DNA of 64,000 bases from Auanema rhodensis. Its lineage: Eukaryota > Animalia > Nematoda. The DNA is taken from positions 16,120,001 through 16,184,000 of the forward strand of contig OZ059899.1 in assembly GCA_964057225.1 (NCBI GenBank), written 5' to 3'. Within the stretch, counting starts at the first letter, position 1, and each line of letters opens with the position of its first letter. The position numbers and the translations under genes are program-made. Shown one piece after another: positions 10,159 through 16,239 of the stretch. The notes beneath the pieces are model-generated. The model had not been told where the DNA came from. It saw nothing but the letters and a program-made list of their open reading frames with translations, and did not search any database.

Positions 10159-11016
10159 TTATTTCATATTTTTAACATGCAATGTAACAACTGTAGAACC
10201 ATAATTAAATTGCATAGGACGACCAAATTCATCTAAAATTTCAATACGTATGGTATCGAGTGTTTGTCTAGTGATTGGTACATAACGAATAGGATTAAAT
10301 GTTTTGGCAATCATTTTACCAAATTCAGTAGGAGGTGGTACAGGCAAACATGCAAGTAAATTAGCTTTCACATTACCAAGAATGGAATATTCTACAATAT
10401 CACAATATATATACATTGTATTAATGTTATTTGAAAAATCAATGGGACGCCTGGCTATTATTGTATCGTTGATGTTTTTATTTTCAAAACCAAGAAAATA
10501 TGCAAAATCATCACCAAGCGTTGCATTCATTAATAGTCGCTTGCTTGTTACAAACTCTATGCGCTGCAATGTTTTGTTAAACTGAAATGTGGCGTCTGCG
10601 AGCATTTCCTCCACTAGCTTAGCCTCAGCCTGGCGATTATTATACCATTTTTTTACATCTTCATCTTTATCTATTAAACTTTTTATACGTGCTTCTTCCT
10701 CAGCGCCAAGAGGCTTTGTATTGTTGGCGATAAATGATTCTCTTCCAGCATTGATTCCGCGTATTATTTCATCACCATTTGCATAGTTGCCTTTAGGCAA
10801 GTGTAGAATAAATTTTCTATTGGAAAAACGTAGTGTATAAGATAAATCTTTTTGAACATTTAATATAGAACAAGGAAAAATGATGTCTGTCAGCCCAATG
10901 CAATATCTATTATTGCGTAGCCTTAGTGTTTCAGGTAATCTGGTAAGAAACACTGATGATGTATTACTTTTTTCAGAGTCAACTGATGATGGAAGAGTAA
11001 TGTAAAAATCATCCAT
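10159..11016 (-). CDS. Minor capsid/penton protein (single jelly-roll, Polinton PX), 285 aa
   Basis: FYITLPS N-terminus, MYIYCDIVEYSILG, IRIEILDEFGRP..F....VVTLH C-terminus. Confidence 0.87.
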   Translation of the reverse strand: MDDFYITLPSSVDSEKSNTSSVFLTRLPETLRLRNNRYCIGLTDIIFPCSILNVQKDLSYTLRFSNRKFILHLPKGNYANGDEIIRGINAGRESFIANNTKPLGAEEEARIKSLIDKDEDVKKWYNNRQAEAKLVEEMLADATFQFNKTLQRIEFVTSKRLLMNATLGDDFAYFLGFENKNINDTIIARRPIDFSNNINTMYIYCDIVEYSILGNVKANLLACLPVPPPTEFGKMIAKTFNPIRYVPITRQTLDTIRIEILDEFGRPMQFNYGSTVVTLHVKNMK

Positions 11017-11095
11017 GACAAACCACCACTTGATACGTGTACACTATTGCAAATGAAATCATTTGCATTTTAGGTACATTTACGAGTGGTTGATT

Positions 11096-11743
11096 ATGGT
11101 TTTCAGCTTCAAACTACCCAGTCAGACAACTGTAATAGGTGCTACCCAATGCGGTAAAACAACCCTCATAAAGCACATATGTGAAAATACTGAAAAGTTT
11201 TTCAACGTCCCCATTGATAGAATATTCTGGTTCAGTCAATGTGGGTCATCGTCAGGTGTACCAATAAATGATGAGCGTTTAATAATTATTCAAGGGCCGC
11301 CTGATCCTGATTTGATAAAAGAACAAAAGGGAGTAAATACTATACTAGTGCTGGATGATTTGATGAACTTTTTTTCATCGAATAAAGCAGCAAAGGAATT
11401 ACTCAACAACATTTTTACAGTATGGGCTCATCACTGGAATTTGGCAGTGTTTAATCTTGTGCAAGCGGCATTTCAACTGGACAGGACCAGTCGAATCAAT
11501 AGTACATATATAATACTGATGAAAAGTCATTCAGATATATTACAAATACGTAATTGTCTGCAGCAATTATTTGGGCCACGTTTCAAAAATGCTCTAGAGG
11601 CGTATGATGATGCAATGTCTACTCCCTATAGTCATTTACTGATTGACAATCATCCTTTAACAAGTGAGAAGCAGCGTATACTATCTGATATAACAGCGGA
11701 GAACCCTATTGTTTATGTTGCCAGAAATGTGTTTAGTGTTTAA
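11096..11743 (+). CDS. A32/FtsK-like genome-packaging ATPase
   Basis: Walker A GATQCGKT, Walker B ILVLDD, RINSTYI and PYSHLLID motifs. Confidence 0.93.
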   Translation: MVFSFKLPSQTTVIGATQCGKTTLIKHICENTEKFFNVPIDRIFWFSQCGSSSGVPINDERLIIIQGPPDPDLIKEQKGVNTILVLDDLMNFFSSNKAAKELLNNIFTVWAHHWNLAVFNLVQAAFQLDRTSRINSTYIILMKSHSDILQIRNCLQQLFGPRFKNALEAYDDAMSTPYSHLLIDNHPLTSEKQRILSDITAENPIVYVARNVFSV

Positions 11744-11755
11744 AGTGCTTGTTCA

Positions 11756-12064
11756 ATGAGTGGTCGTATTTTGTCAAATTTCAACTTTTTGTCTTCTTGC
11801 GCCAAAACTCCTTGTTCTGTTTCCTCATTTTCTTTTGCACAAATTGAAATTATTGTTGAAATTGTATTTAATATTGTGAAAAATAATAATTTTCTTTTAA
11901 CTAACAAGGAATATAAAACCCTCTTGCCCATATCTTCATTATTACGTCAAATAGCTTTGATACGCACACCGGAAAAGGCTAAATCATTATTGGCAACGCT
12001 TTCACACAAACAATTGAAAACAATAGTTACATGTGGTATTGCCTATTTTGGTTTTAAATCATGA
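11756..12064 (+). CDS. Small Polinton hypothetical protein, 102 aa
   Basis: ATG ORF packed between the ATPase and the next gene (ATGA overlap); IVEIVFNIVKNNNFLL resembles the small helical ORF common in Polintons. Confidence 0.6.
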   Translation: MSGRILSNFNFLSSCAKTPCSVSSFSFAQIEIIVEIVFNIVKNNNFLLTNKEYKTLLPISSLLRQIALIRTPEKAKSLLATLSHKQLKTIVTCGIAYFGFKS

Positions 12065-12777
12065 AGCTCAACCATAAATATCGACTAATTCCTGTCGACG
12101 AGGAAACAATTAATATAGACAAGTTTGATGCAGAGCTCAAGCTTTTACGAGAAAATAGAGCTATACCCGACTATAAAAAGGCTGAACTATACGAAGACTT
12201 GATTGCTCGTCTCAAAAACTATAGAGAAAGTATAGATGCGCCCATATCAGTACAAGTGGAAAATGCTGATCCACCTCTATTGCCAGAATACAAGTTGCCA
12301 AGAAAGTATAACAATTTGTGGGAGAAATTTCCAGAGGTGCGCACAAACAAGAATAACCAACTTGTGATTAATAATGAGGCTGTACCAAACACGAATATTA
12401 CAAAAATTTTAGATTTTGTATTGGATAAAACAAAAACGGAGCCCAATGGATTTTCAGTCTTGTCAAAGTTTTTAGCCAGTAAAGGCGTACCAAGTTCTAA
12501 CAAGAAACAAACTAGAAGAGAGTCGGCTGACAATGATTCAGTTGACGTTGTAACTAGAGCTGAACCGGCTGTTACAGACTTGGACTCTACTATATTACCT
12601 AGAACGCCTCGTCATCGTAAAGCTGTTATTCGATATTCACCATCACCGGTTCGTACACTCAAAAGTAAAAGGTCAAAGACTTTTGATACTGCCGCCGAAT
12701 CATATTACACACCACAAGAAGGAGACTCACAGAATGGCCAAGGTCGTAAAAGGTTCTACATTAGATTATGGAAATGA
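12061..12777 (+). CDS. Polinton hypothetical (PZ/core-like) protein, 238 aa
   Basis: KYRLIP N-terminus, Ser/Arg/Pro-rich C-half, ends QNGQGRKRFYIRLWK. Confidence 0.72.
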   Translation: MKLNHKYRLIPVDEETINIDKFDAELKLLRENRAIPDYKKAELYEDLIARLKNYRESIDAPISVQVENADPPLLPEYKLPRKYNNLWEKFPEVRTNKNNQLVINNEAVPNTNITKILDFVLDKTKTEPNGFSVLSKFLASKGVPSSNKKQTRRESADNDSVDVVTRAEPAVTDLDSTILPRTPRHRKAVIRYSPSPVRTLKSKRSKTFDTAAESYYTPQEGDSQNGQGRKRFYIRLWK

Positions 12778-13801
12778 TATTTTGGCGAGCATTTATTACG
12801 ATATAAAACACCCAGCTTCATATACATCAGCCAAGAATTTATTATCGCAAGCACGAAAACATGGCATTTCAAAGGTACAAGTTGATGATTTTTTGCAAGA
12901 TTCTGAAACTTTTACACGACATAAACCAACCAGAATGCGTATGCAGACTAGAAAGACTAGAGGATGTGGTCGATTTCTAACAGTGCAAGCAGATTTGGTT
13001 GATATGCAAAAATATAAAAAATTAAACGACGGCTATGCTTACATGTTGACCATGATTGATGTTTATACACGCATGTTATATGTTAGGCCTTTGAAAACTA
13101 AAGGTGGTATAGAGGTTGCTAGTGCATTTGAAAGTTTATTCAAGAATTTTATACCAATTCAGTTGATTACTGATAATGGCACAGAGTTTTATAATAGTCA
13201 TTGTGAAAAACTATTCAAAAAGTTTGCCATACTGCACGGATCTACAAGTTCACCACAAAAGGCTGCAATGGTGGAGCGAGCAAATAGAACTTTAAAAACA
13301 CGCATGATGAAATATCTCTATTACAAGAATAATCATCGATGGATTGATATCCTAGATGATTTGGTTGAAGGAATAAACAAATCTTATAACCGCTCTATAA
13401 AAATGCGGCCCATTGATGTTAAAGCAAATATATTCATTGAAGAATATGCATCAGCTGTTAAAAGCCGCTTTAAAATTGGTGATACTGTTCGCATAAGCAA
13501 AAATAGGCGTACTTTTGAAAAAAGCTACGAGTCTGGATATACAATGGAGCTATTCACAATTGATGAGGTTGTAACCGGAAACCCAACCGTGTATAAACTT
13601 GTAGATTATAATGGTGAACGTATAAAGGGAATATTCTACGAACCTGAACTTGTCTTGGCTACTAATAAAAGTAACAAGTACTATATAGAAAAAGTTTTAA
13701 AAGAGCGTACTCGAAGCGGTAAACGTCAAGTATTTGTAAAATGGAGTGGATATCCCGACAACTTTAATGAATGGATAGATGCAGAAAATTTAAATGTATA
13801 A
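12734..13801 (+). CDS. Retroviral-like (rve, DDE) integrase with C-terminal chromodomain
   Basis: QADLVD / TDNGTEF / VERANRT catalytic D-D-E; YYIEKVLKER...VFVKWSGYPDNFNEWI chromodomain. Confidence 0.96.
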   Translation: MAKVVKGSTLDYGNDILASIYYDIKHPASYTSAKNLLSQARKHGISKVQVDDFLQDSETFTRHKPTRMRMQTRKTRGCGRFLTVQADLVDMQKYKKLNDGYAYMLTMIDVYTRMLYVRPLKTKGGIEVASAFESLFKNFIPIQLITDNGTEFYNSHCEKLFKKFAILHGSTSSPQKAAMVERANRTLKTRMMKYLYYKNNHRWIDILDDLVEGINKSYNRSIKMRPIDVKANIFIEEYASAVKSRFKIGDTVRISKNRRTFEKSYESGYTMELFTIDEVVTGNPTVYKLVDYNGERIKGIFYEPELVLATNKSNKYYIEKVLKERTRSGKRQVFVKWSGYPDNFNEWIDAENLNV

Positions 13802-14099
13802 TTTTTCAATGTTATAAACAATTGTAATTATAATAAATGATTTATTTGATATATCGCATAATGTAACAATAAAAAACCAGCAAAATACAAACAACAATTC
13901 AACCTGGAAAAAAAAAAAAAATGTAGACTATTCAAATTTTCAAATTCTTACCAGTTGGTTGATCATTCGTCCTCAATTGATGAGCCATTGATGGATAATC
14001 GCAAGAGCTGGAAAAAAAAATGTTACGGCTGAGAATATAAAAATGCCACATAACAAAACAAGAATAAAACGCCAATTGTACTATTTGTGCTTGTTGTAG

Positions 14100-14684
14100 T
14101 CAAAATGAAGGATCAAAGCGGATAAACATGTTCAGGTTGAGTGCTTCTGGACTTAGTTTAAAGTAGAATACATTCTGCTTATAACCAAAAGTCTTTACAG
14201 TAGCCTCATCTGCATATATAACAATATAGCCCATATTGTTCAACAATTGCTTGCACGTCATGGTGTTATAAGAGCGCATCTAAAAAATGATAAAATTGAA
14301 AATAAATAAATATGCAAGCTTACATTAATAGAGAACTTTTCGGGCTTATAGTGACGAAATTCCTTCAAAAGACCCAACGCATCATTCCTTCCTCTACACT
14401 TTATACAGAGGCTGAAACAGTGATACTCGTCTATAACCTGCAATGATTCCCTACAAGTTTTGCAGAGACAAATTGGTCTCATTAATACACTCCTTGGTGG
14501 AGTGCTCTCTCTCAGAATCTCCATCTGCTTTATTGGTGAATCTAAATTAAAGATTTAAAAAATACAAGTTAAGGTTCATACCAAAACTTGTAAAATTTGG
14601 AGCTGGTGTGGGTGGTCGTGGTACTTCAGGTTCAGGCGATTTGCGCACCACATTTGTCACATCAGCAAGTACAGCACGCTTCAT
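14100..14684 (-). CDS. Spliced orphan protein (~166 aa, 3 exons) with N-terminal D-box-like motif, CDK consensus sites and Cys-rich domain
   Basis: Exons 14684-14582, 14541-14324, 14279-14100 with 40- and 44-nt GT-AG introns give an open frame: MKRAVLADVTNVVRKSPEPEVPRPPTPAPNFTSFDSPIKQMEILRESTPPR...CLCKTC...HCFSLCIKC...FIRFDPSF. Confidence 0.75.
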
Positions 14685-15312
14685 TTCCGCTAAAGATCCA
14701 ACTTTCTAAAATATAAGGCAAACTTGCAGAGAGGAGCAGTCTATGGCGATTGGCAAAGAGTGGCAGGAGATGGTGAAACGTCGGATCCTCGGATAGTTGG
14801 CAGAGCTGAAATGTAAATGTAGCAAAATTGCCAACCTTTTATACAAAGATTTTTGTAAAGTACAACCCATTGTGTTACAATCAAGTTTGCTGATGAAATT
14901 CTTTTATTAATTAGATTTTACAGCATATTTATGCAGATATACTCATCTCATCGACAGTTGCCAGCAGTTGGCGCACTCTGAACCTGTAAACAATCTGCAT
15001 ATTATTTTTACATCTCTTTAAACATTATTGTTTACCGTTTGTGCCATAAACAACAGCCATCTCTGTAAAACATTTAGGCTTTTTAAACTTTGCTTAATAG
15101 CTCATATATTATTCATAGTATGCTTTTACACCCATATTGTAGCACAAAACATATGACTGCCAACGTTTTATATGTGAAAATATTTCATTCTTTAATATTT
15201 ACCAATGATTATATTACGAAACTAAAACTTTTGAAATGTTAAAATGATTATCCTATATTTAGACCCCCACAGTGCAGTTATTACTGTTTATTAACCATCG
15301 ATATGCGTGGCG

Positions 15313-16239
15313 TTGAGGTCAGCGCAACTGTTTGTTAATCTTATTGTATTTACCTTCAATGTGTGCTCTATAGAGTTATTGTATTGTTATATTAGTAAAA
15401 TAAAGTTTAAAACTAATCTTTTCTTTTAATTTGAAACTTTTACTTGTTAGAATAAATATAATTAATAACAATTTGTAATTTCAAAAATTAATAATTTAAT
15501 GTCGTTCTTATCGAATTAACCTTCGATATGTGTTCCATTGAATTTTGTATTTCATATCGTTCTTATCGAATTAACCTTCGATATGTGTTCCATTGAATTA
15601 CCCATAACAAGTACGGTGAACAAAATTATCTACATGCAAAAATTTTATTGATCTTTAAAAATACAAATAAAATAGTACAAACACAATACAATAAAAAATA
15701 AACAAAATAAGTAAACAAACATTATTAATAAATATAATAAAGAAATAAAGAAATAAATAAAATTTAAAAACAAATTTATATATTTAAAATTTAAATATAA
15801 TTTATATATAAAATTTAAAGTTTAAATATAATTTATATATATAAAATTTAAATATAATTTAATCATTTAAAGTTTAAATAAAATTTATATATATATATAA
15901 AATTTAAATATAATTTAAATATTTAAAATTTTTATTTTTATTTTTACTTAATATATTTAAAAATAATTGAAAATATATACATACATTTGGAAAAGCATAT
16001 TTAAATTTGATTTAAATTTGATTAAAAAAATCATGCTTTAAATCATGACTTTTATATTTAAAAAAGGAAAATCCATGAACCATGATCCTAAAATATGATT
16101 TTAACAGCTGACGCTCAAAAATATGTTTTTGACAGCTGACGCGCCCCAAAAGTATGTTTTTAGCAGCTGACGCCCCCAAAAGTATGTTTTTGACAGCTGT
16201 TTGGGGGCGTGGTTAGTAAATTTTGCACGGCTCTCTACT
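15313..16239 (-). repeat. Right terminal inverted repeat (~930 bp; only ~1.7 copies of the 55-bp unit at 15502-15599)
   Basis: Reverse complement of 533-1583. Confidence 0.93.

Follow-up and report, generated by a model that had tools for sequence, protein, structure and literature searches.

A transcribed and spliced Maverick gene of Auanema rhodensis with a putative N-terminal D-box and an exitron-like intron

Which protein is made from the small gene next to the right terminal inverted repeat (TIR) of a Maverick element in Auanema rhodensis, and could a destruction box (D-box)-like motif near its N-terminus place it under the control of the host APC/C? A transcribed, spliced Maverick gene in worms with a putative cell-cycle degron that can be tested bears on what activates endogenous Mavericks. 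The initial annotation of the stretch of DNA analysed here (the window, 64,000 nucleotides) had described a hidden spliced gene of which the ORF track shows the middle exon only. This is correct: the middle exon appears in the track as an ORF of 88 aa (14258-14524), and a protein starting with MKRAVLADVTN is indeed encoded from position 14684 on the minus strand.

The carrier is a Maverick/Polinton element of 15.7 kb (533-16239) with AG-rich termini and TIRs of about 1 kb. The TIR arms lie at 533-1594 and 15302-16239, and their outermost 216 nt are 100% complementary. The element is flanked by an identical 6-bp target site duplication (TSD; 5-8 bp is expected for Mavericks), and carries pPolB, integrase, ATPase, protease and capsid-like ORFs. 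Pfam matched pPolB and the integrase-chromodomain protein; the matches of the adenain-like protease and of the ATPase were weak. The ORFs 7141-8475 and 10159-11016 match Polinton-like loci of our tblastn set, and from their size and position we read them as the major and the minor capsid protein, respectively. The integrase-chromodomain gene (12734-13801, plus strand; Pfam rve and Chromo) is the convergent neighbour of the gene studied here. Among named relatives of the integrase, that of Auanema sp. JU1783 is the nearest, with an alignment that covers 59% of the query at 69% identity; Caenorhabditis comes next. From the intact TSD and the identity of the terminal 216 nt, the element looks recently inserted. 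Nematode Mavericks with a fusogen are described in the portion of the literature covered here, whereas the ORF list of 533-16239 contains no ORF of fusogen size.

The gene (ATG at 14684, stop codon at 14100-14102, minus strand) lies in a 1.5-kb interval that extends from the integrase stop at 13801 to the inner end of the right TIR near 15302, and is read inward from this TIR, as had been proposed. Our RNA evidence consists of contigs of five runs. X1-X4 belong to one study, the source of all splice joints, while X5, from a second study, covers 13999-14146 only, has no joint, and was not taken as supporting evidence. The contigs reveal four GT-AG introns, three in the coding sequence and one in the 3' UTR, all on the minus strand. 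Coding exon 1 (14582-14684, aa 1-34), which is covered by contigs of X1, X2 and X4, encodes the D-box-like motif and a Pro-rich linker. It is followed by intron 1 (14542-14581; 40 nt, 20% GC; joint in X1 and X4) and by the constant part of exon 2 (14455-14541, aa 35-63), which encodes SPIK, TPPR, C59 and C61. The exitron-like intron 2 (14412-14454; 43 nt, 42% GC; joint in X1 and X2) has no in-frame stop. Exon 3 (14324-14411) encodes C80, C83 and H98 of a long protein form and holds the stop codon of a short one (14403-14401). After intron 3 (14280-14323; 44 nt, 18% GC; joint in X1, X2 and X3) comes the coding part of exon 4 (14100-14279), a stretch of 59 aa that starts with an ATG and is covered in X1, X2, X3 and partly in X5. 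The 3' UTR intron 4 (13904-13951; 48 nt) has its joint in X1 only, and a polyA-like signal is found in the sequence at 13846.

Both introns of the initial annotation (14581-14542 and 14323-14280) are thus present as joints in RNA, but the third coding intron, 14454-14412, had been overlooked. Since introns 1 and 3 are spliced in RNA, the gene is transcribed, including its first exon. The data support a transcribed, spliced accessory gene of the Maverick.

A TATA-like box (14837-14843, minus strand) that precedes the ATG by about 155 nt is a candidate promoter. The 5' ends of the contigs lie at 14749 in X1 and X2 and at 14797 in X4. The X3 contig reaches 14884, beyond the TATA-like box, so the box stays a presumed promoter and the contigs do not fix the start site. 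An upstream ORF of 54 codons (14709-14870, minus strand) in the same frame starts upstream of the TATA-like box, within the X3 contig, and ends just 5' of the main ATG. The hexamer TGCCAA occurs four times in 14685-15300, upstream of the gene (shuffle P 5e-5 for a motif chosen after the fact), and once in the left arm, at 1744; it resembles an NFI half-site.

The only coding difference listed between RNA and DNA, at 14649, is found in three runs, is synonymous and lies outside the D-box-like motif; the transcripts may therefore stem from a different allele or copy in which this motif is preserved. Further differences between RNA contigs and the window occur at 5208-5226, 8155, 8224, 13998, 14012 and 14750. 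These differences suggest that other copies or alleles of the element are present in the sequenced worms. Contig depths at the gene are 3-7, although contigs are a poor measure of expression, and the patchy cover seen here is also found on other genes of the element.

A gene in this position could be host-derived cargo. In nematode Mavericks, intron-bearing wasp proteases and krma kinases lie between TIR and integrase (Widen et al., 10.1101/2022.07.12.499685). Our gene would then have been captured from a nematode genome, its D-box would be a legacy of its earlier role in that host, and the target of the protein would be the host and not Maverick replication; it could, for instance, be a selfish element. 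It shares with this cargo the slot between TIR and integrase, short host-type introns, transcription and poor conservation, while transcription of core Maverick genes was not detected in that study. It differs in that neither homology to a known protein nor a host paralogue was found, the latter in the 64-kb window and in the protein collections searched. The slot is also shorter and not GC-rich: it measures about 1.5 kb with 34.5% GC (13001-15000), compared with 34-40% for the core genes, whereas the published cargo regions are 2-5 kb long and of high GC. Introns are no marker of cargo here, since short GT-AG candidates are also present in the polB region, and the patchy contig cover extends to other element genes. 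The D-box-like motif and the exitron are features of our gene which are absent from the cargo features described by Widen et al. in the text available. On balance we regard a captured host gene as unlikely.

Surveys that filter on long ORFs would overlook such a spliced gene. Jeong et al. (PMC10748475) apply this filter and, in the sections available, label additional ORFs merely as uncharacterized; one supplementary file of that paper gave 0 matches for two 6-residue motifs.

The fate of intron 2 decides which protein is made. When it is retained, the ORF encodes 166 aa; when it is spliced, the ORF encodes 66 aa. Splicing deletes codons 64-78, and with them C64, H75 and C76, and shifts the frame so that C80 and C83 are lost as well. 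The CxCxxC...HCxxxCxxC pattern that had been reported (C59, C61, C64, H75, C76, C80 and C83) is therefore real in the long form but missing from the short one. Likewise, the 166-aa protein that had been predicted exists as an ORF with intron 2 retained, but two of the three informative runs (X1 and X2) show the 66-aa form. The only contig that spans all coding junctions, record 2 of X1, encodes 66 aa without the Cys/His pattern. In the remaining informative run, X4, intron 1 is spliced and the contig then stops after the first 29 nt of intron 2 (14426-14541; our rule for bridging is 31 nt). This hints at the 166-aa form, and a partly processed pre-mRNA would give the same picture. No contig of runs X1-X5 crosses the entire retained exitron. 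Assembled contigs lose rare variants, so the proportions of the splice forms are not readable from them.

Intron 2 has the properties of an exitron as defined in PMC4484396: canonical splice sites within coding sequence, no stop codon if retained, and a GC content above that of ordinary introns (42% compared with 18-21% for the other three introns of the gene). According to the same source, exitrons whose length is not a multiple of three give altered C-termini or NMD-sensitive mRNA. Introners are reported in dinoflagellate Polinton-like elements (PMC12166617). In shuffles, the chance of an open frame through the exitron, exon 3 and exon 4 was 0.33 x 0.09 x 0.0146, or about 4e-4. Together with the GC content of intron 2 and its lack of an in-frame stop, this makes the 166-aa long form the likely selected one. 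Two other products of the region were rejected. A second open frame of exon 2, joining exon 3 after exitron splicing, fails since the acceptor of intron 1 puts a stop at the junction, and its 84-nt open stretch is expected by chance with P 0.14. Skipping of exon 2 yields, from the sequence, the same early stop.

A similar layout is known from HPV E6/E6*I (PMC5795458). There too an intron lies inside a zinc-motif ORF; once it is spliced out the frame changes, and what remains is a short N-terminal product with a partial zinc motif. The ATG-led ORF of 59 aa that begins 77 nt past the early stop of our short form parallels E7 after E6*I in that description; this is an analogy of layout only and not a sequence similarity.

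The D-box-like motif occupies aa 3-11 (14652-14678, minus strand). The published extended D-box is RxxLx[D/E][hydrophobic]xN[N/S] (PMC5717348), and our motif agrees with it at five of the six specified positions, with P10 unmatched. The match to the D-box consensus near the N-terminus, as originally proposed, exceeds chance: when the N-terminal 62 residues were shuffled 100,000 times, we obtained P = 3.1e-4. As controls we used 832 ORFs (206,107 aa) from 101 unrelated loci. The pattern RxxLx[DE][ILVMF]xN matched once in the 206,107 aa and within the first 40 aa in none of the 832 ORFs; a D-box near an ATG was found once in the 101 loci, in an ORF of 23 aa. An element proteome of 4,000 aa would be expected to contain about 0.04 matches, so that picking the motif post hoc weakens the signal without removing it. 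In the six-frame translation of the 64-kb window a similar pattern occurs at two of 127,996 positions, one of which is our motif, and the looser RxxLxx[IVL]xN at ten. Among reviewed C. elegans proteins, the likewise looser RxxLxx[IV]xN is present in 51 of 3,334 (PMC3315528). A match to the motif is in general a weak predictor.

The motif could be a chance product of a decaying gene, with an unused D-box and an exitron that reflects cryptic mis-splicing of an orphan ORF no longer under selection. The post hoc choice from a 64-kb window, at the expected rate given above, the frameshifted form in two of the three informative runs and the lack of relatives in any collection searched fit this. However, the motif belongs to a real spliced gene and occupies residues 3-11, within a Pro-rich stretch, while no control ORF has it within the first 40 aa. 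The long frame is intact, at the small chance calculated above, in an element that looks young. We therefore think it improbable that the motif is a mere accident.

Lysines are found near the motif at positions 2, 15 and 39, exon 1 is Pro-rich, and aa 36-53 have a pLDDT below 50 in the single-sequence model. The full CDK sites that had been noted are present, SPIK at aa 36-39 and TPPR at aa 48-51, but given the composition they are weak evidence: compared with shuffles, the four S/T-P sites have P = 0.066 and the two full sites P = 0.027. B-type cyclins and C. elegans FZR-1 and CYE-1, which are APC/C substrates, also carry an extended D-box, in a disordered N-terminus where lysines and S/T-P sites are close by. 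In contrast to them, our protein, with its putative degron, has no cyclin or other known domain and belongs to a mobile element.

A D-box can also serve a protein that blocks the APC/C. The long form could be an Emi1-like inhibitor, the 66-aa form an Acm1-type pseudosubstrate, or both, and the block of APC/C-FZR-1 would keep cells in an S-phase-like state. The long form has a D-box, a linker of about 48 aa and the Cys/His cluster in this order, similar to the D-box, linker and ZBR of Emi1 (PMC5717348). Blocking of the APC/C is documented for other viruses, namely by PACR and Apoptin (PMC6252338). The short form retains the D-box and the CDK-like sites, has few lysines and is, like Acm1, a short D-box peptide that is presumably disordered. 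Unlike Emi1/Emi2, however, our protein has no LRRL-type C-terminal tail and no ZBR/IBR family match; its Cys/His piece has no Pfam match at E up to 10. Of the Acm1 motifs, the KEN box is missing from the protein and the ABBA motif from its N-terminal part. One loose ABBA-like regex match, located in exon 4 where a strand is predicted, was rejected as it does not fit the published consensus. Known inhibitors combine several motifs, while a single D-box is the usual design of a substrate, and contig depths of 3-7, poor as they are as a measure, do not suggest abundance at the level of a decoy. We consider an inhibitor or decoy quite unlikely.

The small accessory proteins of adintoviruses and Polintons called Oncoids (Starrett et al., PMC8502044) resemble our protein in size, in a paired CxxC (C61-C64 and C80-C83, in our long form only) and in carrying cell-cycle short linear motifs. 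Those described there have LxCxE and a CK2 site and typically lie upstream of polB. Our gene lies at the opposite end of the element, is spliced and encodes a candidate APC/C degron, and none of its three protein pieces contains the LxCxE Rb-binding motif ([LI]xCx[DE]). We do not class it as an Oncoid since it lacks LxCxE and has an atypical position. By the features tested, the protein is not a member of the Oncoid, Emi1 or Acm1 family.

Homology searches were made with single-exon pieces of 34-72 aa, which limits their sensitivity. In a word search against longer proteins, the 72-aa middle piece gave one candidate and the 59-aa last exon two, none of them at E up to 10. The sole phmmer match among 1.84 billion representatives (P0124) was the translation of a tandem repeat and was rejected. 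ESM Atlas returned nameless matches of 0.91-0.92 with low recognition for one piece and none for the other. PHROGs gave two weak matches, to the Pro-rich exon, the best E among PDB sequences was 0.2, and IMG/VR had no match. Using tblastn with the three pieces, we found no homologue in any of the 101 integrase-bearing loci (101/101 searched), which is a weak test as these loci are distant (integrase identity 30-43%). Its best values, E 0.025 for the Pro-rich piece and E 0.066 in a distant Polinton (L059), within an unrelated ORF, were both rejected.

The piece from exon 4 is predicted to form a small alpha/beta unit (AlphaFold single-sequence pLDDT 81.6, pTM 0.49), and the single-sequence model of the middle piece has a pLDDT of 58. 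Foldseek searches with the last exon against PDB, and with both pieces against BFVD, gave no match with E < 0.001. The wide VIA fold search gave a best Z of 3.1 for the low-confidence model of the middle piece and no Z of at least 2 for the last exon. Neither fold search speaks to the absence or novelty of a fold.

Degradation of the protein by the APC/C is plausible. The reading that we prefer is that the N-terminal D-box makes the 166-aa form a substrate of the host APC/C, and that the exitron is an off-switch which cuts the protein to 66 aa; we hold this to be quite possible, if short of probable. The D-box in the presumably disordered N-terminus, with lysines close by, would bind FZY-1/FZR-1, and this binding would lead to destruction of the protein when cells enter meiosis and, after mitosis, from its exit until the end of G1. 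The germline of C. elegans keeps APC/C-FZR-1 low in its stem cells; at the onset of meiosis it is high and destroys proteins with D-box and KEN motifs (PMC12124362). With such a profile the D-box would limit the protein to germline progenitors and cells in S/G2, so that it would accumulate only where the APC/C is off. These are the cells in which a self-replicating, integrating element would gain most. The Cys/His cluster would bind zinc and, together with the C-terminal unit, form the effector part. Since the early stop that follows exitron splicing lies upstream of two introns, this splicing probably reduces how much of the long form is made in ordinary worms. The original proposal that the protein times replication of the element to S/G2 or meiosis is speculative.

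In a variant that we find rather doubtful, the Maverick would encode an early regulator of its own, gated by the cell cycle, and the exitron would toggle between two products, a D-box/zinc protein of 166 aa and a D-box peptide of 66 aa. One of the two would engage APC/C-FZY-1/FZR-1 and thereby confine or trigger the activity of the element in germline progenitors.

We found no link between Polintons and the APC/C in the open-access literature. If the degron works, it would tie a Polinton to the host APC/C, and it can be assayed directly in C. elegans. If the splice-switched, APC/C-coupled reading is true, this would be the first such link and would give a handle on the waking of dormant Mavericks. 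If the motif is due to chance, an orphan accessory gene with an exitron would be left, which is of modest interest.

Other parts of the element deserve mention. The left arm and polB region (1700-7140, plus strand) contains 13 short AT-rich GT-AG candidate stretches, of which about seven are distinct and plausible and several lie near frame switches. None of these candidate introns is bridged by any RNA contig. The candidates suggest that the pPolB gene may have introns; the core genes of the C. plicata Maverick are called intronless by Widen et al. (10.1101/2022.07.12.499685). An exon-like, AG/GT-flanked stretch at 1954-2076 (plus strand), without contig cover in runs X1-X5, encodes a basic patch and a hydrophobic motif with an acidic tail. 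The latter resembles a SUMO-interacting motif. This stretch could belong to polB as a 5' exon, or form a small gene of its own that mirrors the one studied here.

In the middle of the element, a C2H2 zinc-finger ORF (9689-10153, plus strand) has a Pfam score below the cut-off and is covered by RNA contigs in X1, X2 and X4; it is possibly a second expressed regulator of the element. It has a weak tblastn match in the distant Polinton L059, where the matching sequence adjoins polB. In the same Polinton, two ORFs adjoin the integrase (5260-7400), one IAP/BIR-like and one PC4-like by their translations.
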